A stretch of 64,000 nucleotides of DNA from Minisyncoccia bacterium. Lineage in GTDB: Bacteria; Patescibacteriota; Minisyncoccia; Phycocordibacterales; DATDWN01. The position numbers were made by a program, and so were the translations under genes. Positions within the stretch are counted from its first letter, which is position 1, and each line of letters begins with the position of its first letter. The notes beneath the pieces are model-generated. The model worked only from the letters and a program-made list of their open reading frames with translations, had not been told where the DNA came from and searched no databases. Positions 4,143 to 49,396 of the stretch are shown in pieces. The stretch spans positions 13,188 to 77,187 of the forward strand of contig JBAQUS010000004.1 in NCBI GenBank assembly GCA_049297675.1. The letters are read 5' to 3'.

Positions 4143-5330
4143 CTATATAAAAGTTAGTGCCTTACCAAGCTTTCCGGCTCTCCCTGTTCGTCCTATTCTA
4201 TGTATGTAGTCTTCATGCGTGCCCGGTACATCGAAGTTAATAACGTGGCTTACATTTGGAATGTCCAAGCCTCTTGCCGCCACGTCTGTTGCAACGAGTA
4301 CTTTAGTTTTGTTTGCTTTAAAATCATTTAGAGCTCTCTGTCTTTGAGTTTGGTTTTTATTTCCATGTATTGCTGTGGAAGAGACTCCTCTTTTTGAGAG
4401 CTCATCAGATAGTTTTTGAACACCATGTTTTGTTCTAGCAAAAACCAAAACCTTCTCGAATTCATCTTTTGAGAGTAATCCGTGTAACACATCAACTTTT
4501 GGCAAATCGTTAACCCGTACAACATCTTGATGAACATTTTTTGCAGTATCACCTGTTTTAACAGAAATTCTAACAGGATTATTCAAAAATTCAGAAATAA
4601 GTTTTTCGATCTCATTTGAGAGCGTTGCTGAAAAGAAAAGGGTTTGTCTTTCTTTTGGCATTTTAGACATAACAAGTCTCATGTCGTTTATAAAACCCAT
4701 GTCTAGCATCCTATCTGCTTCATCCAAAACCACAGATCTATAATTTGAAATATTCAGAACTCCTCTTTCCATTAAATCTTTTATTCTTCCGGGTGTACCG
4801 ATTACAAATTGATTGTGAAATCGTAGCTGTCTTATTTGCCCGCCAATAGGTACTCCTCCAACAGCACAAACCGAATGAATGCCTACATTGCCAACAAATC
4901 CTTTAAGTTCATCGTTTATCTGTACTGCCAGTTCACGTGTCGGAGCTATGATAAGAACCTGCTCATTGACACCGTTGTAAACTTTATGAATAAGCGGAAT
5001 AAGAAAAGCCGCAGTTTTGCCTGTACCTGTATTTGCAATTCCAACAATATCTCTGCCAGCTAAAATCTCTGGAATGGCACCGTCTTGAATAGGTGTAGGT
5101 GTTACGTAACCTTTTTTTATAATGTTACCCTTCAAACCTTCCACAATTTTAAAGTCAGCAAAACTATGCTTAGGCACGAATGGTATTTCCTTCGCTACTT
5201 CAACTTTAGTATTTATATATCTAGAGACATCAATGCTTTTTTGTGCAAATTTTCCTCTACCTCTACCTCTTCCATTAAATCGTGGACTGGAAAAACTTCC
5301 ACGTCCAAAATTTCCATTATTTCTGTACAT
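4143..5330 (-). CDS. DEAD-box ATP-dependent RNA helicase with an N-terminal RG-rich tail
   Basis: Motifs NTGTGKTAAF, PTRELA, LDEADRMLD, FSATL and HRIGRTGRAG. Confidence 0.9.
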   Translation of the reverse strand: MYRNNGNFGRGSFSSPRFNGRGRGRGKFAQKSIDVSRYINTKVEVAKEIPFVPKHSFADFKIVEGLKGNIIKKGYVTPTPIQDGAIPEILAGRDIVGIANTGTGKTAAFLIPLIHKVYNGVNEQVLIIAPTRELAVQINDELKGFVGNVGIHSVCAVGGVPIGGQIRQLRFHNQFVIGTPGRIKDLMERGVLNISNYRSVVLDEADRMLDMGFINDMRLVMSKMPKERQTLFFSATLSNEIEKLISEFLNNPVRISVKTGDTAKNVHQDVVRVNDLPKVDVLHGLLSKDEFEKVLVFARTKHGVQKLSDELSKRGVSSTAIHGNKNQTQRQRALNDFKANKTKVLVATDVAARGLDIPNVSHVINFDVPGTHEDYIHRIGRTGRAGKLGKALTFI

Positions 5331-12945: not shown

Positions 12946-12960
12946 ATTTAGTATAATAAC

Positions 12961-12992
12961 AAAAAATCACCGAGTTGTATCGGTGATTTTTT
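12961..12992. terminator. Bidirectional hairpin aaaaaatcaccga-gttgta-tcggtgatttttt
   Basis: 13-bp stem flanked by A and T runs, downstream of tRNA-Gln. A near-identical copy lies at 33933-33964. Confidence 0.6.
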
Positions 12993-13085
12993 GTCTTGAA
13001 TACTGCACTCAGCAGGTATGCTATGTCGGAATAGGTACTTGAGCCATTTCGACCCTCCTCGGAGTCCGAAACTATCTCAAGCTGG

Positions 13086-13156: not shown

Positions 13157-13266
13157 AATTTCTAGAATCAGGAAATCGGTCACAAATAATTTTCTGATGA
13201 AAATTTTCGCGACCCCGCCTCCTTCGTCTTCACTCAGTCCGGCCTTGCAAAAACATAACATGTTTT

Positions 13267-13319
13267 CTCACCCCTCTAAAGGCTTCAAAGGCCTCTGTTC
13301 TAGCGTGGGGCGTCTCCCA
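13267..13319 (-). pseudogene. Degenerate tRNA-Gln-like fragment
   Basis: The minus strand reads TGGGAGAC...GAGGC-CTTTGAA-GCCTT. The anticodon arm and 5' acceptor resemble the adjacent tRNA-Gln, but there is no foldable T arm or 3' acceptor. Confidence 0.35.
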
Positions 13320-33917: not shown

Positions 33918-33932
33918 AATCATCATAATAAC

Positions 33933-33964
33933 AAAAAATCACTGATTTGTATCGGTGATTTTTT
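33933..33964. terminator. Bidirectional hairpin aaaaaatcactga-tttgta-tcggtgatttttt
   Basis: Second copy of the 12961-12992 hairpin, within a shared ~50-nt block, downstream of tRNA-Trp. Confidence 0.6.
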
Positions 33965-35338: not shown

Positions 35339-35494
35339 TTACTTTTTTGCCTCTTTGAAAGCAACTCTCTTACGGAGTTTTTTGCTGTACTTTTTGAGTT
35401 CGATTTTTCTCTCGACTTTTTTCTTGTTTTTCCTGGTCCAGTATACTTCCCCAGATTCTTTATTTCGAAGTGGTATTAATCTATCTTGTGACAT
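35339..35494 (-). CDS. rpmG: 50S ribosomal protein L33 (non-zinc type)
   Basis: Absent from the ORF track at 51 aa. Hand translation: MSQDRLIPLRNKESGEVYWTRKNKKKVERKIELKKYSKKLRKRVAFKEAKK. A hairpin terminator aaaaaacgct-atta-agcgtttttt follows. Confidence 0.7.
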   Translation of the reverse strand: MSQDRLIPLRNKESGEVYWTRKNKKKVERKIELKKYSKKLRKRVAFKEAKK

Positions 35495-35711
35495 AGTACC
35501 TTGAGATTAATATAAAATTAGAGAAAATGCAAGGAGACCAACCCGTTCGGATTGGCCTCTAGAAATCACAAACCATCGTCTGGAAAAACTCCTGGCAGTA
35601 TGAGCTGAATACTTCTGACAAATTTCTCGTACTCAGTAATGAATACATAGGAAATTCCTATGTAAGTGCCGTACGAAAAAATCCCAAGCAGTTGGGATTT
35701 GTTTCGTCGTG

Positions 35712-35857
35712 TGCGCCGGGTTGGAATTTCTCCCTCGCCTCTCAAGTTTGCCGTCGCAAACTCTCGGGCTGGTCACCGACTCGCGTTCGGCTTTTACTAA
35801 AGCCGAAATCGCTCCGTCGTTCGAATCCAACACGCAAAGCATGCTTTGCTCCGGCAC
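35712..35857 (-). ncRNA. tRNA-like structured RNA candidate carrying a duplicated tRNA-Tyr 3' end
   Basis: 5' GUGCCGG pairs with 3' CCGGCGC+A, and GUUGG...CCAAC form a T-stem identical to that of tRNA-Tyr. About 95 nt of GC-rich hairpins are inserted in the T-loop position, and a palindrome gcaaagcatgctttgc replaces the D and anticodon arms. It has its own terminator hairpin at 35680-35700. Confidence 0.3.
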
Positions 35858-35889
35858 ACACGAAAAAATCCCTTGCGGGATTTGTCGTG

Positions 35890-35972
35890 TGCGCCGGGTT
35901 GGATTCGAACCAACGAAGCCCGAGGGCGACAGATTTACAGTCTGTTGTGATAGACCACTCCACCACCGACGC
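35890..35972 (-). tRNA. tRNA-Tyr (anticodon GTA), long variable arm
   Basis: Hand fold: GCGTCGG/CCGGCGC acceptor, ACAGA-CTGTAAA-TCTGT anticodon arm, GTTGG-TTCGAAT-CCAAC T arm. Confidence 0.85.
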
Positions 35973-36027
35973 AACAGTTAGAGAATATCATAAAGCAACA
36001 CAATTTCAAATTTTTATATTCACAAAC

Positions 36028-38712
36028 TTACGCCATAGTAGATTCTGGAATGAAGCTTTCTGAAACAAATGAGCCGTTTCTTCCCTTCTTTACGTTGAAA
36101 TTAAACTCACCTCCCTTTAAATCAACATGAATTGTTCCGCCTTTTGAAATGCCTTTGCTGACCATGAGGGATGCAATGGGTGTTAGAATTTTGGACTGAA
36201 TCAGACGCTTCAGAGGTCTCGCCCCATATTGTGGGTTATAACCCTCTTTTGCTAGATGCTCTATAACGGAATTTGAAAACACCAGCTTTATTTCTTTTTG
36301 CAAGAGTCTATCTTTGACTTGTTCTACCTGAATATTAACAATTTCTGCTATGGCTTCTTTGGATAAAATATCAAATATTATTATCTCATCCAATCTGTTT
36401 AAAAATTCTGGTCTAAAGTGATCCTTAAGAGCTGACATGACATTAGTTTTGGCATTTTCATAATTTGCCTTCTCTCCACTACCAGAGGCAAAACCGATTT
36501 TCTCCATTTTGTCTATGAATCTCGAGCCAATATTTGATGTCAAAATAATAACTGTATTTCTAAAGTTTACCACCCTGCCCTTTGAGTCTGTTAGTTTGCC
36601 ATTATCAAGCACCTGAAGCAGAATATTGAAAACCTCTGGATGAGCCTTTTCTATCTCGTCGAAAAGAATAACCGAATATGGTCTGTGTCGAACCATTTCC
36701 GTAATGGTTCCTCCTTCATCATGACCTACATAACCTGGTGGAGCACCTATAATTTTTGAAACTGAGTGCTTTTCCATAAACTCCGACATATCGATACGTA
36801 TAAGAGCTTTGTCGTCGTCGAACATAAATTGGGCAAGAGCTTTAGTAAGCTCGGTCTTTCCAACCCCTGTTGGACCAAGAAAAAGAAAAGATCCTATTGG
36901 TCTGTTGGGGTCAGAAATCCCAACCCTACTTCTCTTTATAGTATCCGAAATCTTCTGCACTGGTTCGTTTTGACCGACTATTCTTTTCGTTAAGACTTCT
37001 TCCATTCTGCCAAGCTTTTCTGCCTCTTCCTCTAGCATTCTAGTAACTGGAATTCCTGTCCATTTTGAAACTATAGTTGCAATATCGTTTTCAGTTATTT
37101 CTTCTTTCAAAATTCTTCTTGACGATTGAAGTTTTTTTAATCGCTTTAACTTGCCATCTAGTTCTTTCTCAAGCGCCGGAATTTTACCATAGCGAATCTC
37201 AGCAGCACGTGAAAGGTCCGTTCTAGCCTCTGCGCTATCTGCCTCTAACCTCAAACTCTCAAGTTGTTTCTTTATTGATTTAATATCATTAACTGTTTCT
37301 TTCTCGTTATTCCATTTGAGCTCTATCTCACTAATGTCTTCCTTCAAATCGGCAACACTTTTTTCTATCTCCTTTAATCGTGTCTTTGATTTTGTGTCAG
37401 TCTCTTTTTTTAAGGCTTCTTGCTCGATCTGGAGCTTGACGATTTTTGAGTGAGCAGTCTGCAGAACTGGAGGTTTGTTCTCTAGTGCTATTTTTAAGTA
37501 GGATGAAGCTTCATCAATAAGATCGACTGCCTTGTCCGGTAAAAATCTATCAGAAATATATCTTGCTGAAAGATTTACAGCAGAAACTATTGCCTCGTCT
37601 GTGATATGAACTCCATGATACAGTTCATACTTCTCCTTAAGCCCTCGTAAAATAGTTACAGCATCATCGATAGAAGGTTCATTTACGTAAACTGGCTGGA
37701 AACGTCTTGTCAGAGCTGGATCTTTCTCGATATGCTTTTGGTACTCCTTAAGTGTCGTAGCTCCAATTGCTCTTAACTCTCCACGAGCCAAAGCAGGCTT
37801 CAGCATGTTTGAGGCATCAAGCGACCCTTCAGCCGCACCTGCTCCGACAATAGTATGAATTTCATCAACAAAAAGAACTATTTTGCCGTCAGCTCTCTCG
37901 ACTTCTTTCAAAATATTTTTAAGTCTTTCCTCAAACTCACCTCTATATTTTGTTCCAGCAATAAGAAGTCCTAGATCAAGTGAAACTAGCTCTTTATCCC
38001 TCAAAGATTCTGGCACTTCCCCCATAGACATTCTTGTAGCCAGTCCTTCAACAATGGCAGTCTTTCCCACACCAGCTTCGCCAATAAGTATCGGATTATT
38101 TTTTGTTCTTCGAGAGAGAATTTGTATTATCCTACCTATTTCATCATCTCTTCCTATAACAGGATCAAGTTTGTTTTGTTGGGCAAGTTTAGTAAGTGAC
38201 CTAGTATACTTTGAAAGAGCCTTAAATTTTTTCGGAGCCTCACTTTCAACAGTTTTAGCACTTCGAATATCTTCTAAAACCTTCAAAACCGCATCCTTGT
38301 TTATTTTAAATTTCAAAAGTAAATCTCTTGCTGAACTTTGAACTTCCGTAAGTGAAAGAAAAAGGTGTTCTGTCGATACAAACTCATCTTTCAGGCTAGA
38401 TGCTTCTTTTGCTGAAATTTCTATGGTCTGTGCCAAATCAGGTGTGAGATAAATCTGATACGAAGCAGATAAGGTTTGTCCGGCCTCAGTACCTTCTATG
38501 AGCTCAAGAAGTGAGTCCGTCAGTAATATTGTATCAATCTCCATTCTGTCCAATATAGAGGCGACTATACTCTCTTCCTGAAGAATAAGCGCTGTCAAAA
38601 GATGGTTGGTATTAACATGATTTTGACCACGTTCAATAGCCAGCTCATGAGCCTTTCTTATAGCTTCTTTAGCCTTTGTGGTAAATTTCCCAAATGGTGG
38701 CATGCTGTTCAT
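36028..38712 (-). CDS. clpB: ATP-dependent chaperone ClpB
   Basis: Clp_N domain, two AAA+ modules ([18 protein letters not shown]) and a long coiled-coil M-domain between them. Confidence 0.9.
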
Positions 38713-45203: not shown

Positions 45204-45490
45204 ATAAGGAACTAAAGGGTTCTGAATGCGAACCCAAGCGGAACGCCCGAAGGGCGTGCCAAGGATTTTCGCCTGATTCTGCAAGAGAATTCGGGAATTT
45301 TGGTGTGCAAGCGTGCAAGGTTTTTTCGTCGAGACGCAGGTTCGAGCCAAAGATTTCTTTGGCATAGACCTTTTTAGTAAAAAGATCTGAATCAGAAGCG
45401 ATTCTGTCCAATGATTCCGCGTCTTTTAGCCATTGTTGGAAAGGTGCGAGCCAATCATTCTACTTGTGTGAAAGAGAGGTCATTTCTCAT

Positions 45491-46277
45491 CTGTCAAACA
45501 TCCGATGTTTGACAGTAAGTTAGGGGTAGATTATTACCGAAAATGTTAAAACTTTTTATACTTCAAAAGTTTTGGTGTCAGCTTTTACCCCGCTATTTTT
45601 TACAAATTTATAATATTCATATTTATCCTCAAATTGGTCTAATACTACTTCCCTTTTTAATATTTCCTTCCAACGATTTTCTGTAACGTAATCCTGATAG
45701 CTAGACCACTCATATTTTTCTGGATTATTACTCCAATGTGAAAGCTCTTTTGGATTTAAATGAACATACGCAGATAAATGTAGTAGTTGTTCATTACTTT
45801 CAACATGAACTGCTTTATACGGACCTTCAAAAAGATGCCCCGAAATTTTATATTTAGTATTGAAGTATTTTGTATACGAGTTAAGTACACGTTGCATATA
45901 TTTCCCAGTTCCACCTTCTTCATTTTCACGAACTATTAGATGAAAATGGTTAGTCATCATCGCAAAAGAAACTAGGTCAACGTATCTTTTCGAAATTATC
46001 TTTTCGTAATCATCACTGTTAATGTCAAACATCCGATGTTTGACATAATTCGAGATCATTCTTGAAACTTGAGGAAAAATAACATTTGCTTGAAAGTATA
46101 AAATGAGAAATAAAAATCTAATTCTATCTCTATCATCCTTGAAGATGATTTTCTTCCCAACTCCCCGATTATATATATGATAGTGTTCCCCAATTTCAAT
46201 ATTATCTCTTCTCATAACCTCTCATCCTACATGGACAACTATCCATCTGTCAAACATCGGATGTTTGACAGATGGAT
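45491..46277 (-). mobile_element. RAYT/IS200-like unit 1: Y1 gene bracketed by copies of the palindrome tgtcaaacatc-N-gatgtttgaca
   Basis: Palindromes at 45491-45515 (12+c+12), 46022-46046 (inside the CDS) and 46241-46277 (18+g+18). The centre base is complemented in the third copy. Confidence 0.6.
45556..46215 (-). CDS. HUH/Y1 tyrosine transposase-like protein (REP-associated, IS200-like domain)
   Basis: HYHIYNRGVGK, HUH motif TNHFHLIV and the catalytic-Tyr region LSAYVHLNP. Confidence 0.75.
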   Translation of the reverse strand: MRRDNIEIGEHYHIYNRGVGKKIIFKDDRDRIRFLFLILYFQANVIFPQVSRMISNYVKHRMFDINSDDYEKIISKRYVDLVSFAMMTNHFHLIVRENEEGGTGKYMQRVLNSYTKYFNTKYKISGHLFEGPYKAVHVESNEQLLHLSAYVHLNPKELSHWSNNPEKYEWSSYQDYVTENRWKEILKREVVLDQFEDKYEYYKFVKNSGVKADTKTFEV

Positions 46278-46401: not shown

Positions 46402-46499
46402 GGTGAGCAGAACGGGAGCGGCAATTCTTGCCCCTTTCGTCGCTCCTTGACACTCTAGTTTTTAGTTTACAAGCGCTTAAATGCGCAGAAGAGGTTAGC

Positions 46500-48038
46500 A
46501 TGTTTTACACTATCGCAATTTCCGTTCTCGTTGCAGTGACAATCTCGGTCCTGATCGTCGTCGGTTGGCTTATCTTCCGTGTCGTACAGACACGGAGGAG
46601 GACACCAGTCATTCATGATTGGGCGCGGAGGGATGATAGTCGCGAGACGACACCCTCCCCGACTCCTACCACGACATCCGGAATTGATGTCGACCTCACA
46701 CTGAATCCTCCCCGCCATACTCCGAAAGGAAATAGCGGAAGAGAACCCGAACCGTTGCCTCCATGTAAATGGAAAAAAGGCACGTTTCGTATCATCTACT
46801 GGGCGGTAATAATTCCGCTCGGAATGATATCTGTCTTCGTTCTGGAGTGGGGTATCCTATCGGGTCTGCCACTCACGTGGAATACCCTGTTGGAATTCAA
46901 CGCAACTTCAGTTGGGCTGACCCTTGTTGTTCTCTGGGTAGCCTACTTCTTGGACACATTCAAGATCGTCAAGTTCAATGAACTCGGCGGTCGTGTGGTA
47001 CTTGGTAGTTTCGAGTCCTACTCTGACGGGATAACTCTCGCACCGAGATGGATTACCGATCTGGTCAAGGTAACGAGAGCAACTGAAGAACTTGATCAAC
47101 CTCACAGTGACCCGTCAAAAATTTTCTGGGGAGACCTAAGCAAACTTCCAGACGGGAAAATCCCGGACGGTATGGTACTACCAATTCGTGTGCCATTCCT
47201 CCAGAGGTCAAGCGATGAAGACTTCGAAGTTCGCTGGCCACTTGAAACAGGAGAGGTCAAAACCAGAATTACAAAGGGCTATGACCTTCTTAGTGCAACG
47301 GATGCTCCTGTCGAGTATTCGATCGGAATCAGATTCATCGACATCCAACGTGTTATCGTTCGACTCAGGTCACTCAAAGCAGCCTACGACTTGGCAACAG
47401 ACTATGCAGAGACGCTCATAACGGGCACTTTGCAGAAAATGTCCGCTGCCGAAGCCCAAGTACTGAAACAGGAAATTTCAGTACATCTTGAGGAACAGAC
47501 GGACAACCGTGTTTTCCAATCGTACGGCTTCGTGATCGACTTCGTGACTTTGAAGTCAATCGGGACTTCGCACACAATCGCGGAATCGCGAGCGCAGGCG
47601 GCAGCAGCTGTCAACCTTGCGAATAAAACGGTTAGAGACGCAAAAGCTACAGCTAAGGCAACCGAACTTCAAGGTGCTTCTGTGGCTGGAGCTGAATTGG
47701 CACTACTCAACGCGAGGTCAGTAGGACTACGCAACATCGTCGACGCTGCGACTTCACGGTCAGGGGGAGTTGAACTCGCCAAAGCTATGGAAGCGGCACG
47801 CGCTATTCAGTTTGGCGCAGATTCGACAGTTGTTGTCCCAGGTGGAAACACTGGGGACGGTCTCGGACTCTTTGGCGCAGCGGTCGGTACAGCAATTAGT
47901 GCTTCGGCCGCACTTGGGAGAAAACCAGCTGGTGAAAAAGCTCTAACAGAGACCCAACCAGCACAACCAACAACTACTACAACACCCCCTGCACGTGGCG
48001 ACAGACGTGGCCATAAGAAAGGGGGTAAGAGGAGTTAG
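46500..48038 (+). CDS. Multi-TM SPFH/band-7 (prohibitin/HflK-like) domain protein with Ala-rich coiled C-terminus and basic P/T tail
   Basis: Start set at MFYTIAIS (GAGG 5 nt upstream). FKIVKFNELGGRVVLGSF ... YSIGIRFIDIQRVI ... YGFVIDFVTLKSIGTSHTIAESRAQAAAA fits the SPFH pattern. The DNA is GC-rich. Confidence 0.6.
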   Translation: MFYTIAISVLVAVTISVLIVVGWLIFRVVQTRRRTPVIHDWARRDDSRETTPSPTPTTTSGIDVDLTLNPPRHTPKGNSGREPEPLPPCKWKKGTFRIIYWAVIIPLGMISVFVLEWGILSGLPLTWNTLLEFNATSVGLTLVVLWVAYFLDTFKIVKFNELGGRVVLGSFESYSDGITLAPRWITDLVKVTRATEELDQPHSDPSKIFWGDLSKLPDGKIPDGMVLPIRVPFLQRSSDEDFEVRWPLETGEVKTRITKGYDLLSATDAPVEYSIGIRFIDIQRVIVRLRSLKAAYDLATDYAETLITGTLQKMSAAEAQVLKQEISVHLEEQTDNRVFQSYGFVIDFVTLKSIGTSHTIAESRAQAAAAVNLANKTVRDAKATAKATELQGASVAGAELALLNARSVGLRNIVDAATSRSGGVELAKAMEAARAIQFGADSTVVVPGGNTGDGLGLFGAAVGTAISASAALGRKPAGEKALTETQPAQPTTTTTPPARGDRRGHKKGGKRS

Positions 48039-48040
48039 TC

Positions 48041-49396
48041 ATGCCTATCGTCGCAATCGTTATCGTACTCCTCTTTCTCGTCTTCGGACGAAGGAAAGGA
48101 AACGATAGCAAATACATTCGAGAGTCAGAGGTCGTTGATACCAAGCCAAATGGTAAAACAGAGACGGAAAAACACACTCTGTGGTGGCACGTCGGCCACT
48201 ACAAACTCGTGTGGCTACAGCACTGGAGGAGGTCAACAACCCTCCGTGTCTCCGCCGGACTGCTTGCTTTCGGGCTGGGAGTCTGGATCTTCCCTCTAAC
48301 GAGGGAATGGTGGAGTTCGCAGTGGGTTAGCTTCGGCCTTTACCTAATTGCCGCTCTGGCCATTATCTGCCTTGGGTTCATGTTGGGCCCGGCGCAGAAA
48401 GTGCCGTTCGAGTACAGGCTCCGGCCTTTATTGCTCATCATTGGAATTGCGATCGCAGTCTACGGACTCGGTGCGAACACCAAGTTCGGTCAGAGCACCT
48501 GGTCGTGGATCGCCTCTCACTTCGGGAGAACAGATGGAAACATCGGTCTAACTCCAGAGGAGACAGCTGACCTACCGGACGGGTTCGTCGAGAGCGACAA
48601 TCCGAACCACTGGTCAAACCACGTCACCGATGAAAATCGTGATGTGGTCAACATGGTCCGGGCTGCCGTCCAGAGCGAACTTGTCCCAACCCATTGGGAC
48701 CTCGCCATGCAGATCTGCGGTATGGAATCGGCATGGTTTCGTCAGTTCGATGAGGACGGTAATGTTCTCAGAAACGTCAAAAACAATGACGGGTCAATCG
48801 ACTACGGAGTCTGTCAGATCAACTCCATATGGATGAAAAAGTCCAAGGAGTTGGGAGATGGTTTCCGGATCGACGGGCCGGCTGACGAAAACATTCGAAT
48901 GGCCATGTGGATCTGGACGAATCCAGAAACACGTGGGCCACGCGAGTGGACCGGTACGTACAACACAGCTCTTGCTGTTGTCCGCAATGCGCGGACAACG
49001 CCAGAGACTGTGAACGCACGTCGAACTCCAGAGAGGTCACCGGCTGAACAGGAGACTGTTCAGGCTGGGATCGCACTGGTCTCACAAACTGAGCCAATTC
49101 ACCAGCAACGCAACCCACAAAGAGAGGTGTCTGTCACAGCCATGTTTCCAGGATGGGTCACCGACAAGTCCTCCATGACCTGCGACCTCGAAGAGGACGC
49201 AGAAATCGAGGCGGTCGGTGAGCCTGGAATATTTTACTGGAGTGACACAAACTTCAGTACGAACATCCTAAAGCCTGGAGAAACTGCTTCACTTGCTGGA
49301 TTCAAATGCGTTGCAGTCAGATACTTTTCCCCAACGTTTGGGGGAAAACTGACTGAGGGTCAGAGCCCTTACGCAATCGTGAGACGATACAAATAA
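48041..49396 (+). CDS. Membrane-anchored lytic transglycosylase (SLT domain) with a C-terminal domain of unknown function
   Basis: Four to five N-terminal TMs. ICGMESAWFRQFDEDGNV ... DYGVCQINSIW contains the SLT catalytic E-S and the Q-I-N motif. AGAGGAG SD. The ATG lies 2 nt after the upstream stop. Confidence 0.7.
   Translation: MPIVAIVIVLLFLVFGRRKGNDSKYIRESEVVDTKPNGKTETEKHTLWWHVGHYKLVWLQHWRRSTTLRVSAGLLAFGLGVWIFPLTREWWSSQWVSFGLYLIAALAIICLGFMLGPAQKVPFEYRLRPLLLIIGIAIAVYGLGANTKFGQSTWSWIASHFGRTDGNIGLTPEETADLPDGFVESDNPNHWSNHVTDENRDVVNMVRAAVQSELVPTHWDLAMQICGMESAWFRQFDEDGNVLRNVKNNDGSIDYGVCQINSIWMKKSKELGDGFRIDGPADENIRMAMWIWTNPETRGPREWTGTYNTALAVVRNARTTPETVNARRTPERSPAEQETVQAGIALVSQTEPIHQQRNPQREVSVTAMFPGWVTDKSSMTCDLEEDAEIEAVGEPGIFYWSDTNFSTNILKPGETASLAGFKCVAVRYFSPTFGGKLTEGQSPYAIVRRYK

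Follow-up and report, generated by a model that had tools for sequence, protein, structure and literature searches.

A GC-rich, tRNA-shaped structured RNA element behind tRNA-Tyr in a Minisyncoccia genome and the family to which it belongs

What is the GC-rich stretch that lies between a tRNA-Tyr gene and a second copy of that gene's 3' end in the genome of a Minisyncoccia bacterium? We analyzed a stretch of 64,000 nucleotides of this genome (the window), in which a preliminary description had pointed out a duplicated block, made up of the tRNA-Tyr 3' end and a terminator, that encloses a minus-strand RNA candidate. The duplication is plainly there. A 23-nt direct repeat (D1) relates 35703-35725 to 35881-35903 at 96% identity, the exact 13-mer ACGAAAAAATCCC occurs at both 35673-35685 and 35860-35872, and the second copy of the direct repeat overlaps the 3' end of the genuine tRNA-Tyr gene (35889-35972). 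The 3' arm of the element and the tRNA-Tyr 3' end are identical over 20 consecutive nucleotides, for which we calculated a chance probability of ~5e-10 within 600 nt. The features of the locus, all on the minus strand, are listed here in the direction of the tRNA.

35982..36009, minus strand: promoter-like site just 5' of tRNA-Tyr (TTGAAA, 16-nt spacer, TG, TATTCT), from a consensus scan
35889..35972, minus strand: genuine tRNA-Tyr, anticodon GTA, CCA not encoded (ARAGORN; Rfam RF00005, 59.5 bits)
35860..35888, minus strand: terminator 1, AAAUCCC-GCAA-GGGAUUU plus U tract (inverted repeat I3)
35851..35862, minus strand: acceptor-5'-like strand GUGCCGG (35857-35851) with the 5' extension CGUGU (inverted repeat I1; MFE fold)
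35834..35849, minus strand: hairpin H0, GCAAAGC-AU-GCUUUGC, the palindrome gcaaagcatgctttgc (read from the sequence; conserved in relatives)
35820..35831, minus strand: T-stem-5'-like strand GUUGG (35831-35827) plus AUUCGAA (inverted repeat I2, 16 nt, 94%)
35777..35819, minus strand: insert arm P1, with CGAC/GUCG, a G-A internal loop, GCG/CGC and the hairpin UUUCGGCUUU-AGUA-AAAGCCGAA (model R1; covariation)
35725..35776, minus strand: junction strand GUGACCAG, P3/P2 hairpin CCCGAGAGUUUGC-GACG-GCAAACUUGAGAGG and junction strand CGAGGGAGAAAUU (model R1; helix 4 covariation)
35703..35724, minus strand: 3' arm, with CCAAC, CCGGCGC, discriminator A (35712) and trailer CACGAC (direct repeat D1, the tRNA-Tyr 3' end copy)
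35674..35702, minus strand: terminator 2, AAAUCCCAA-CUGC-UUGGGAUUU plus U tract, -13.2 kcal/mol (inverted repeat I4; direct repeat D2)

The two terminators enclose a GC-rich structured RNA element of ~150 nt, a tRNA-shaped candidate that does not decode. Its outline, as drawn in the preliminary description, can be read directly: GUGCCGG pairs with CCGGCGC (35719-35713) at 7/7 positions in an acceptor-like stem (I1, 18 nt, 83%) that runs on into the trailer CACACG, GUUGG pairs with CCAAC (35724-35720) in a T-like stem, the palindromic hairpin H0 stands where the D, anticodon and variable arms would be, a structured insert takes the place of the T loop, and the element has a terminator of its own. 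The element has the acceptor 3' strand of tRNA-Tyr and the same discriminator, A73, and CCA is not encoded. The minus-strand fold has a free energy of -74.3 kcal/mol (z = -6.7, 0/200 shuffles as good) and the plus-strand fold one of -65 kcal/mol (z = -6.0). ARAGORN and Rfam call only the genuine tRNA-Tyr at the locus, with no second tRNA and no tmRNA, and the element has neither the cloverleaf nor the decodable anticodon of the tRNA family RF00005, in agreement with the earlier statement that it cannot decode. Rfam searches of the whole window at the gathering threshold, of 35500-36050 at E <= 10 and of 8 related loci at E <= 1 returned only tRNAs. The open reading frames called here had been dismissed as artefacts, and they probably are, judging from their overlap with the tRNA or with the structured element on both strands.

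The preliminary description can be refined on one point, the T-stem, which it gave as that of tRNA-Tyr. The 5' arm, GUUGGAUUCGAAC, is instead the reverse complement of the tRNA T loop and the 3' strand of the T stem (UUCGAAU-CCAAC), and not a copy of the tRNA 5' T strand; it forms the 5' strand of the helix P0 that closes the insert. On the same strand, the acceptor-like strand follows the end of tRNA-Tyr by ~32 nt and the T-like 5' strand by 58 nt. Terminator 1 is weak, with 3 G-C pairs and -11.4 kcal/mol, and its stem can be extended, the tRNA 3' end being able to pair with the 5' arm of the element. Terminator 2 is the stronger of the two; it is a diverged copy of terminator 1, and two relatives (L044 and L009) have a matching native terminator behind tRNA-Tyr. 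In the consensus scan of the locus, the sole promoter-like site was the one 5' of tRNA-Tyr, with none between terminator 1 and the element, and that site is the probable start of a transcription unit of tRNA-Tyr and the element.

The element belongs to a widespread family that carries no annotation and that no Rfam family matches. We found more than 100 distinct copies of the module in Parcubacteria genomes and metagenomes; for model R1 the count is 16 at clpB loci of Parcubacteria and 94 at loci from metagenomes. R2, a covariance model built without the window sequence, matches 35720-35831 on the minus strand with 29.7 bits (E = 7.5e-7). Copies on the same contig are as diverged as copies on different contigs (38-90% identity, median ~0.57) and have kept the fold, keeping in mind that detection by covariance model counts only copies in which the fold is retained; decayed copies include L009, L075 and a tRNA-Gln copy in the window. 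With this family, organisms whose genomes are very small gain a candidate for an abundant non-coding RNA, and the family would account for GC-rich "orphan" intergenic islands and spurious ORF calls beside tRNA genes in these genomes.

The preliminary description had set conservation or covariation in relatives as the test of its candidate, and this is what we found, the element being conserved, compensatory changes included, in upwards of 85 distinct copies. The insert forms a three-way junction (of P0, P1 and P3/P2) with strong covariation. In the family alignment 91.5% of cells are paired, compared to 37-55% when the partners are slid, double changes are present in 27/29 pairs, and 0/500 shuffles reach any of these measures. 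Helices 2 and 3, in arm P1, are paired in 99% and 94% of cells, and every one of their pairs has double changes. The G-A internal loop of P1 (GGAG.../...CGAG) is conserved, as are CGGUGcCCAG and uCG.GGg in the region of the junction strands, where P3 pairs change from C-G to A-U. Overall there are 61 G-U/U-G against 20 A-C/C-A pairs, and 23 against 2 in hairpin P1b, an excess from which it follows that the structure is read on the tRNA-sense strand. The fold is under structural selection. The window copy and its orthologue (L015) differ by 17 substitutions, 8 of which fall in predicted pairs and make up 4 compensatory doubles with 0 broken pairs, while the intergenic DNA flanking the element is unalignable between the two. 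H0 has one G-C to A-U double change between the same two copies, and in relatives the hairpin (pairs 11-17 with 26-32) is kept with compensatory changes. In another relative (L018), the tRNA-Tyr 3' end is as in the window and there is no element, so that presence is patchy among close relatives. An exact-protein look-up with L33 returned only the same strain, in contigs that break inside the tRNA.

One account of the locus would be a local duplication without function, or else a second tRNA-Tyr gene in decay, whose fold is stable by chance. GC-rich palindromes do fold well on both strands, and there is a decayed tRNA copy elsewhere in the window, but the family-wide covariation and conservation and the compensatory changes against the orthologue are not what this account would predict, and in-silico removal of the insert yields a tRNA in 0/83 copies. 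In addition, the 5' arm repeats the 3' arm in inverted form and is not a copy of the tRNA's own 5' strands; in L014-Trp, for example, the 5' arm is GAAGAATCGAA and the tRNA's own strand is GGGAG. Because the reverse complementarity of the two arms includes T-loop bases, we reject a decayed tandem tRNA gene for the Tyr element, and on the comparative data we would count the whole account as already refuted. The intron hypothesis was also rejected, as swapping the insert for a T loop restores a tRNA in 0/83 copies.

Insertion into a second tRNA copy, also offered in the preliminary description, finds no support in the Tyr element, which has the inverted 5' arm and no remnants of the D and anticodon arms, but it is exactly what a second locus in the window displays.

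13169..13319, minus strand: second family member, an insert in the T loop of a decayed tRNA-Gln copy (R2, 43.3 bits, E = 5e-11)

Here a type-A2 insert (13276-13169) follows the 5' half of a pseudo-tRNA-Gln (13319-13277), and the decayed copy lies 12 nt upstream of the intact tRNA-Gln (13156-13083). Aligned to tRNA-Gln, the pseudo 5' half scores 16, compared to -8.9 +/- 3.7 for shuffles, with 0/2000 as good. In total, the model search found two copies in the 64 kb of the window, each at a tRNA.

Linkage to tRNA genes is a general feature of the family. Of 101 distinct copies, 76 lie 19-240 nt (median 56.5) downstream of a same-strand tRNA, and among the first R1 matches in loci with a nearby tRNA, all are on the strand of the tRNA. 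The link to tRNA-Tyr that had been noted earlier holds at this locus, but it is not specific, because tRNAs of 16 named isotypes have this insert behind them, and its arms match the neighbouring tRNA in each case. In many copies the spacer between tRNA and element is short and contains no terminator. Tandem arrays also occur, as do orphan copies, which have no upstream tRNA and retain the fold, and the genes downstream of the element differ between loci. Over the T-stem and acceptor 3' strands, the 3' arm agrees with the neighbouring tRNA at an identity of 0.87-1.0 (at least 0.95 except at two acceptor positions); the value is 0.84 at the discriminator and +1, then 0.55 and then ~0.4, indicating that the constraint stops where the mature tRNA stops. 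A C is present at +1 in 47/55 elements and 54/55 tRNAs. The full acceptor-5'-like strand (7/7) was found in just 12/55 copies, so the complete minihelix of the window copy is not universal. There are five cases in which the element has CCA where the tRNA gene has none; however, the overall frequency of CCA is no higher in elements (8/55) than in tRNA genes (12/55), and we rejected CCA as a signature of retroposition.

A repeated tRNA 3' end raises the question of integration. Integrases that target tRNA genes leave a classic geometry, with an intact tRNA on one side and a displaced 3' fragment on the other. An attL/attR scar, left by a phage or integrative element that integrated at the tRNA-Tyr 3' end and was mostly deleted later, would fit a direct repeat that starts in the T loop, with an intact tRNA on one side and a displaced 3' fragment followed by a native-looking terminator on the other. 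However, between the repeats there is a folded insert of ~100 nt, and this same insert, with RNA-type covariation, compensatory changes and the sense-strand G-U bias, is found behind all 16 isotypes. No integrase or longer cargo was seen between the repeats in ~180 loci (repeat spacing found, 117-310 nt). The repeats of the window locus are not flanking an integrase, and the insert splits the T-like 5' and 3' strands, whereas an att core would be contiguous. With the element as query, blastn (distant mode) found no match in phage and plasmid collections, and there was no genuine viral-contig match. One pattern match in viral_contigs (n=1) was rejected as chance, as it falls within a GC-rich coding region and has no model match and no tRNA. 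We consider the integration scar close to refuted.

The reading that we prefer, with a probability of about 0.5, is that the element is a tRNA-linked structured small-RNA gene, the Patescibacteria counterpart of the E. coli tRNA-linked repeats (TLR / RtT). Most likely it would be co-transcribed with the tRNA, and the tRNA-mimic helix would be its closing and processing handle. Transcription would start at the tRNA-Tyr promoter, read through the weak terminator 1 and stop at terminator 2. The transcript is predicted to fold as a tRNA-shaped scaffold, in which the 7-bp acceptor-like stem and the T-like stem have the sequences of tRNA-Tyr, H0 replaces the D and anticodon arms, and the conserved three-way junction of ~95 nt replaces the T loop. 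The mimic helix would close and protect the RNA, and tRNA-processing enzymes would most likely excise it at its tRNA-like ends, with RNase P as a candidate on the 5' side and, at position 73/74, RNase Z or exonucleases, possibly also the CCA-adding enzyme. The working part would be the conserved strands of the junction (GAACG, CGGUG(A/C)CCAG and CGAGGGAGAA), probably a surface that binds a protein or RNA in trans. The regulatory or mimic role suggested in the preliminary description is a putative one.

The main rival to the small-RNA reading is a selfish module of ~100 nt, mobile but non-autonomous and without host function, that targets the T loop or 3' part of tRNA genes or of their duplicates. 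It would spread between tRNA loci by recombination at the T-arm sequence, which is universally conserved and palindromic, or with the help of an enzyme acting in trans. The fold would serve to propagate the module itself, whether as RNA or as single-stranded DNA, and the repeat of the tRNA 3' end would arise as a side effect of the insertion or of a partial duplication. Several observations point this way. Near-identical inserts stand behind different isotypes, with only 6/37 nearest-neighbour pairs having the isotype in common and cross-isotype pairs reaching 85% identity (Ala vs Ser 85%, Trp vs Tyr 81%), and the likeness between such copies ends at GGATTCGAA ... CGAATCC, which are the T-arm-derived ends. 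Near neighbours behind different isotypes indicate that the module moves between tRNA loci, as a selfish element would. There are also several copies per contig, recent intragenomic duplicates (L177 at 90%, L108 at 89%), the tandem arrays and orphan copies, the patchy presence among close relatives (L018 without the element), the insert inside the T loop of a decayed but otherwise recognisable tRNA-Gln copy, and a gene for an IS200-like Y1 (single-strand DNA) transposase in the window at 45556-46215. On the other hand, most intragenomic copies are old and diverged, and yet every helix has been kept by compensatory change, which is unusual for dead selfish copies, and the conservation of the 3' arm ends at tRNA position 73/74, a boundary at the RNA level. 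We found no transposase-type target-site duplication, no autonomous gene-bearing version and, as above, no blastn match in the phage and plasmid collections. The models have no match beside the Y1 gene, and a tie to this transposase was rejected because no element adjoins it. A MITE or a palindromic element derived from IS200/IS605 would be expected to have many near-identical copies at unrelated sites and ends that match an autonomous IS of the genome; in the 64 kb of the window there are two copies, both at tRNAs, and the copies of the family are mostly old and diverged. As a general matter, the small genomes of Patescibacteria tend to drop useless DNA. We regard a selfish origin as somewhat unlikely, though it stands ahead of the other alternatives considered here.

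A processing handle alone fails to explain why the arms match the neighbouring tRNA, since tRNA-processing enzymes need no exact neighbour sequence. A cis-acting folding or processing switch for the upstream tRNA does explain it. In such a switch the 5' arm would be antisense to the 3' half of the tRNA and the 3' arm would be a decoy, so that in the read-through transcript either the tRNA 3' end pairs with the 5' arm or the 5' arm pairs with the 3' arm, setting the yield of mature tRNA or of read-through. The tRNA 3' end, terminator 1 and the 5' arm make up a long near-perfect palindrome in the window (I3, 17 nt, 88%), and in relatives (L076, L056 and L042) the sides of the palindrome reach up to ~35 bp each. 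The MFE fold of the 299-nt read-through transcript adopts exactly the alternative pairing, with the 3' half of the tRNA paired with the 5' arm of the element and the 5' acceptor strand of the tRNA paired with the downstream copy, and by this fold a cis role fits at least as well as processing. RtT is also classed as cis-regulatory by Rfam. We nevertheless find the switch doubtful, because orphan copies without an upstream tRNA retain the fold, a simple three-segment switch needs no conserved three-way junction, the acceptor-antisense strand is present in only ~1/4 of copies, and the downstream genes vary between loci. Where the 3' arm of the element and the tRNA differ (L049 and L128), the 5' strand fits its own 3' arm and not the tRNA.

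A bolder version of the small-RNA reading, which we think improbable, is that these modules may be general and ancient parasites or partners of tRNAs that copy the 3' end of the adjacent tRNA, by the same process as for the E. coli TLRs, and that full-length forms may be processed into anticodon-less look-alikes of tRNA-Tyr that act as isotype-specific mimics or decoys. Such look-alikes could be recognised by the CCA-adding enzyme, and possibly by TyrRS or sensors of uncharged tRNA.

How does the element compare to known systems? Processing handles of tRNA-like form are found in mascRNA on MALAT1, gammaherpesvirus tRNA-miRNA units and plant mitochondrial t-elements. In these, as proposed here, RNase P or RNase Z may be drawn to a tRNA-shaped helix that does not decode, by which the ends of another RNA are defined. 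They differ in being eukaryotic or viral, in having a full cloverleaf mimic beside the cargo and in lacking a copy of the neighbouring gene, whereas here the cargo would sit in the T loop of a minihelix. Introns are another form of extra structured RNA in or attached to tRNA genes. In archaea, T-loop introns are found in tRNA genes, and the tRNA-Gln pseudogene of the window has its insert in the T loop. In the same phylum as the window, some tRNA genes of Patescibacteria are interrupted at position 35/36 by group I introns (PMC13011429). An intron of this kind would be larger than the insert, which matches none of the Rfam intron models, and the units that carry the element are without D and anticodon arms.

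The rrA, rrB and rrF RNAs of E. coli rrn operons are TLRs between dual terminators, for which transcription by read-through of terminator 1, followed by processing, has been reported (PMC8144298). Like the window element, they lie between two terminators, and their last part copies the 3' end of the stable-RNA gene that precedes them. Unlike it, they stand behind 5S rRNA, and they have no sequence similarity to it; Hfq and CsrA bind them in vitro.

The closest known system is the E. coli tRNA-linked repeat (TLR, RtT RNA, RF00391), in which the layout is alike and homology is not detectable. The TLRs include RtT RNA, or rttR, of the tyrT-tyrV operon (Egan & Landy 1978; Bosl & Kersten 1991; Rudd 1999, as cited in PMC8144298). 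This analogue does not appear in the preliminary description. RF00391 gives 133-137 bits on the E. coli copies and had no match in the window at the gathering threshold (45 bits), in 35500-36050 at E <= 10 or in 8 relatives at E <= 1. Conversely, R1 finds nothing on RtT, and the 7-9 bits (E ~1-4) that R2 reaches on each of the four E. coli copies are not significant; we rejected homology to RtT. The order of parts is the same in both: the 3' end of the gene, terminator T1, a repeat that ends in 18-19 nt of the gene's 3' end, and terminator T2. Both RtT and the window element lie immediately 3' of a tRNA gene on the same strand, and tRNA-Tyr is also the tRNA of the type case. In E. coli, as here, the element closes with 18-20 nt that are the same as those at the 3' end of the gene before it, starting from the T loop (20 identical nt in the window, where 18-19 are required of a TLR), the 5' arm is complementary to this copy (GGGGAAGGAU with AUCCUUCCCC) and closes a GC-rich insert of ~95 nt, and the repeat spacing is ~178 nt. 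Tandem arrays are found in both families, as is one insert behind different tRNAs with arms matching each. The two differ in host, a Patescibacteria lineage here and an enterobacterium for RtT, and in the insert, which in RtT is a nested multibranch within one arm and in the Patescibacteria family is a three-way junction. The window copy further differs from RtT in its acceptor-5'-like strand and H0 hairpin, which give it the tRNA-like outline.

The E. coli TLRs have been known since 1978 without an accepted function or origin, in part because the copies in enterobacteria resemble one another too closely to be analyzed comparatively. The diversity of the Patescibacteria family, with more than 100 diverged copies, makes it possible to define the fold, the conserved junction nucleotides and the boundary of constraint at 73/74. 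A family that looks unrelated to the TLRs but is architecturally identical to them suggests that this arrangement, in which a stable-RNA gene and its terminator are followed by a folded insert, closed by a repeat of the 3' end of that gene, and then by another terminator, is a recurrent solution and not an enterobacterial oddity.

Downstream of clpB, we found a GC-rich minus-strand module of about 150 nt, the Tyr element, that follows tRNA-Tyr and lies between two terminator hairpins.

Features of the Tyr locus (window coordinates)
38712..36028, minus: clpB, first in gene order
35972..35889, minus: tRNA-Tyr(GTA), after clpB, called by ARAGORN and Rfam
minus: terminator 1, a short hairpin directly after tRNA-Tyr
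minus: Tyr element, ~150 nt, GC-rich, between terminators 1 and 2
minus: terminator 2, after the Tyr element and before rpmG
35494..35339, minus: rpmG, after terminator 2, with alr next
35703-35725 and 35881-35903: direct repeat, 23 nt, 96% identity
35673-35685 and 35860-35872: exact 13-mer repeat
35702-35719 with 35851-35868: inverted repeat
35819-35834 with 35895-35910: inverted repeat

The repeats that the preliminary description had placed around the tRNA-Tyr 3' end are present, the longer direct one and the 13-mer alike. Along the minus strand, from 5' to 3', the Tyr element consists of an acceptor-5'-like strand (GUGCCGG), an A, a small hairpin in place of the D, anticodon and variable arms (H0, GCAAAGCAUGCUUUGC), GU, GUUGG-AUUCGAA, a 95-nt insert, CCAAC-CCGGCGC-A, the trailer CACGAC and terminator 2. 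The CCAAC-CCGGCGC-A segment is the T-stem 3' strand, acceptor 3' strand and discriminator of tRNA-Tyr, and the trailer is also common to both. The element had been described as unable to decode, and neither ARAGORN nor Rfam calls a tRNA there, the genuine tRNA-Tyr being the only call; no Rfam family matched it at E up to 10. Its folding energy is -74.3 kcal/mol on the minus strand (z = -6.7), and the plus strand folds less stably. The 180-nt leader that runs from terminator 2 to rpmG contains a strong hairpin (GAGGCCAAUCCGAACGGGUUGGUCUC, 35534-35559, minus) with a U-rich tail behind it, which could serve L33 as a leader or attenuator.

The neighbouring ClpB was used to gather relatives: 80 loci, their ClpB 69-87% identical, in MAGs of Parcubacteria (Paceibacteria / Minisyncoccia). 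At least 31 of the 57 clpB loci carrying tRNA-Tyr have an inverted and/or direct copy of their own tRNA-Tyr 3' end just downstream, and these copies enclose a structured insert.

Insert types
Window type: GAACG, hairpin 1, CGGUG(A/C)CCAG, hairpin 2, CGAGGGAGAAAUU
A2 type, akin to the window type: ...GAGGCGGGGUCG, hairpin, GUGACCGAAUCC
B type: ...AAGGUGUACUGA, hairpin with UGUAA loop, UCGAAUCC

Units can form tandem arrays of two or more, sometimes of mixed types (L007, L016, L017, L030, L033, L034, L132), and the same inserts occur behind tRNA-Trp and tRNA-Lys, with arms that match that tRNA. R1, a covariance model built on the window type, matched a single copy in the window and another 15 among the clpB loci, all on the tRNA strand where a tRNA is nearby. 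A metagenome scan with a degenerate pattern from two invariant strands returned at least 120 loci, and in the first 100 of these R1 confirmed 94 copies (85 distinct), often several per contig. For 76 of 101 distinct copies there is a same-strand tRNA 19-240 nt upstream (median 56.5 nt); about half of the other 25 are at contig starts. The upstream tRNAs are Tyr, Ser, Gln, Lys, Arg, Pro, Val, Trp, Leu, Asn, Ile, Ala, Asp, Gly and Cys, with one more without an isotype, and the named isotypes upstream of family copies total 16. The Tyr element belongs to a large family and is not a unique curiosity of tRNA-Tyr.

The clpB locus itself rearranges often around tRNA-Tyr, since in about a dozen related genomes (L005, L006, L025, L026, L033, L038, L044 and others) this gene is inverted with respect to clpB. 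Independent assemblies of the strain (Logan contigs L001-L003) break inside tRNA-Tyr (~35917) or the left repeat (~35704); assembly graphs apparently come apart at these two places.

The conservation and covariation on which the preliminary description had hung its RNA are borne out across the family: standard pairs fill 91.5% of cells in the 85 distinct sequences, a shift of the 3' partners by 1-3 columns lowers this to 37-55%, 27 of 29 pairs have changes on both sides, and none of 500 shuffles reached any observed pairing measure, figures that are somewhat inflated because the alignment was fitted to the model, with hairpins that are unambiguous by eye. Over the whole fold there are 61 G-U/U-G pairs against 20 A-C/C-A combinations, and the main hairpin alone has 23 against 2, so the structure is read on the tRNA strand; this bias suggests RNA or, with less likelihood, a single DNA strand. 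An extra short helix closes hairpin 2 (GCCC/GGGC, with variants GACC/GGUC), making the insert a three-way junction. Between the Tyr element and its L015 orthologue (ClpB 84% identical) there are 17 substitutions in 149 positions, eight of them in predicted pairs as four compensatory doubles, with no pair broken, and the DNA past the 3' arm is unalignable. We regard a conserved three-way-junction fold, predicted for RNA on the tRNA strand, as established, and the predicted fold as being under selection on that strand. A functionless duplication is essentially excluded.

The closing arms follow the neighbouring tRNA. Its copy in the 3' arm starts near position 58, in the T loop, and is 0.87-1.0 identical along the 3' strands of T stem and acceptor stem; identity drops to 0.84 at the discriminator and +1, 0.55 at +2 and ~0.4 further on, and constraint therefore ends at the mature tRNA end; residual identity beyond it reflects recent duplications that took in the trailer and terminator (L107, L109, L132 and the window). 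The two arms are reverse complements, T-loop bases included (at the Trp locus L014 the 5' arm is GAAGAAUCGAA, versus GGGAG in the tRNA's own 5' T strand), which rules out a simple decayed tandem tRNA gene. By sequence, the predicted closing helix mimics the neighbour's T and acceptor stems. A perfect acceptor-5'-like strand is present in only 12 of 55 copies, the Tyr element included, and swapping the insert in silico for a T loop gave a detectable tRNA in none of 83.

The tRNA genes beside elements (L085-L204 and the clpB loci) have C at +1 in 54 of 55 cases, and after the discriminator CA in 34/55 and CCA in 12/55. Locus L177 has two 90%-identical copies (1567-1675 and 4164-4272) with a common H0 and a 3' arm ending ..GCACCAA, a CCA, next to a tRNA-Leu gene that encodes no CCA; the duplication extends from the beginning of H0 as far as the CCA, both RNA-like boundaries.

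In the window, the preliminary description's insertion into a second tRNA copy, which is not evident for the Tyr element with its inverted 5' arm, is literally true at tRNA-Gln.

The tRNA-Gln locus
13169-13276, minus: second tRNA-linked module, type A2 (R2, 43.3 bits, E = 5e-11)
13169-13319, minus: decayed tRNA-Gln copy including the A2 insert, 12 nt upstream of intact tRNA-Gln
13156-13083, minus: intact tRNA-Gln

R2, the covariance model of the A2 type, was built without window sequence and also scores the Tyr element (29.7 bits, E = 7.5e-7). The A2 insert occupies the T-loop site of the decayed copy, whose 5' half is still recognisable, with an anticodon arm carrying UUG (alignment score 16 versus -8.9 +/- 3.7 for shuffles, none of 2000 as good). 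Near-identical terminators (caaaaaatcaccgatacaa(c/a)t(c)(g/a)gtgattttttg, minus) follow tRNA-Gln (12960-12993) and tRNA-Trp (33925-33962); in both cases a GC-rich spacer of 50-90 nt that forms hairpins separates the tRNA from its terminator. About 350 nt from tRNA-Leu(TAG), a 219-aa ORF (45556-46215, minus) matches an IS200-like Y1 transposase (PF01797, E = 5.7e-7); no tRNA-linked module was found beside it. Directly after this tRNA, a GC-rich stretch (45204-45420, plus, 45-60% GC) has a modest folding z of -2.4, no Rfam match at E up to 5 and no tRNA 3'-end copy. A 3-kb island (46428-49396, plus, 50-56% GC in a 37% GC genome) adjoins a tRNA cluster and a transposase gene, has two abutting long ORFs (536 and 451 aa) without Pfam match, and may have been acquired horizontally.

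Isotypes agree in only 6 of 37 nearest-neighbour insert pairs, and Ala and Ser copies are up to 85% identical, with similarity ending at the T-arm-derived ends; it follows that the module spreads from one tRNA locus to another. Copies on one contig are mostly as diverged as copies across contigs, and the spread, to judge by these comparisons, is no recent burst. The main rival, which we consider unlikely, is a selfish T-loop-targeting insertion whose fold would serve its own spread; an integrase scar is essentially excluded.

A promoter-like site is found directly upstream of tRNA-Tyr and none was found between terminator 1 and the Tyr element, and terminator 1 is weak (-11.4 kcal/mol versus -13.2 kcal/mol for terminator 2). 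The predicted signals put the element inside the tRNA transcription unit, between its two terminators. A long palindrome is made up of the tRNA 3' end together with terminator 1 and the 5' arm, and the MFE fold of the full read-through transcript uses pairing between the tRNA 3' end and the 5' arm; both speak for a cis-acting switch, a reading we consider quite improbable. The reading we prefer, at a probability of about 0.5, is that RNA polymerase would read through terminator 1, the RNA would fold into an anticodon-less tRNA-like scaffold with ends defined by tRNA-processing enzymes, and the conserved junction strands would be the acting part.

The closest known parallel is in E. coli, where the tyrT-tyrV operon contains four RtT units (RF00391, 133-137 bits), each made up of a 5' arm (GGGGAAGGAU, the complement of AUCCUUCCCC), a GC-rich insert of ~95 nt and a tRNA-Tyr 3'-end copy (..AAUCCUUCCCCCACCACCA). 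The architecture is that of the Tyr element, even to the ~178-nt repeat spacing, although the topology differs and homology is not demonstrable, as the Patescibacteria copies give no RF00391 hit, R1 does not detect RtT and R2 reaches only 7-9 bits on it. [quoted passage not shown] Literature searches turned up no account of such elements in Patescibacteria, only of group I introns in their tRNA genes. The Patescibacteria family is real, conserved and structured, a new family of a known and unexplained kind; it extends the 45-year-old TLR puzzle to a distant phylum and brings a comparative depth that is missing from the E. coli copies.
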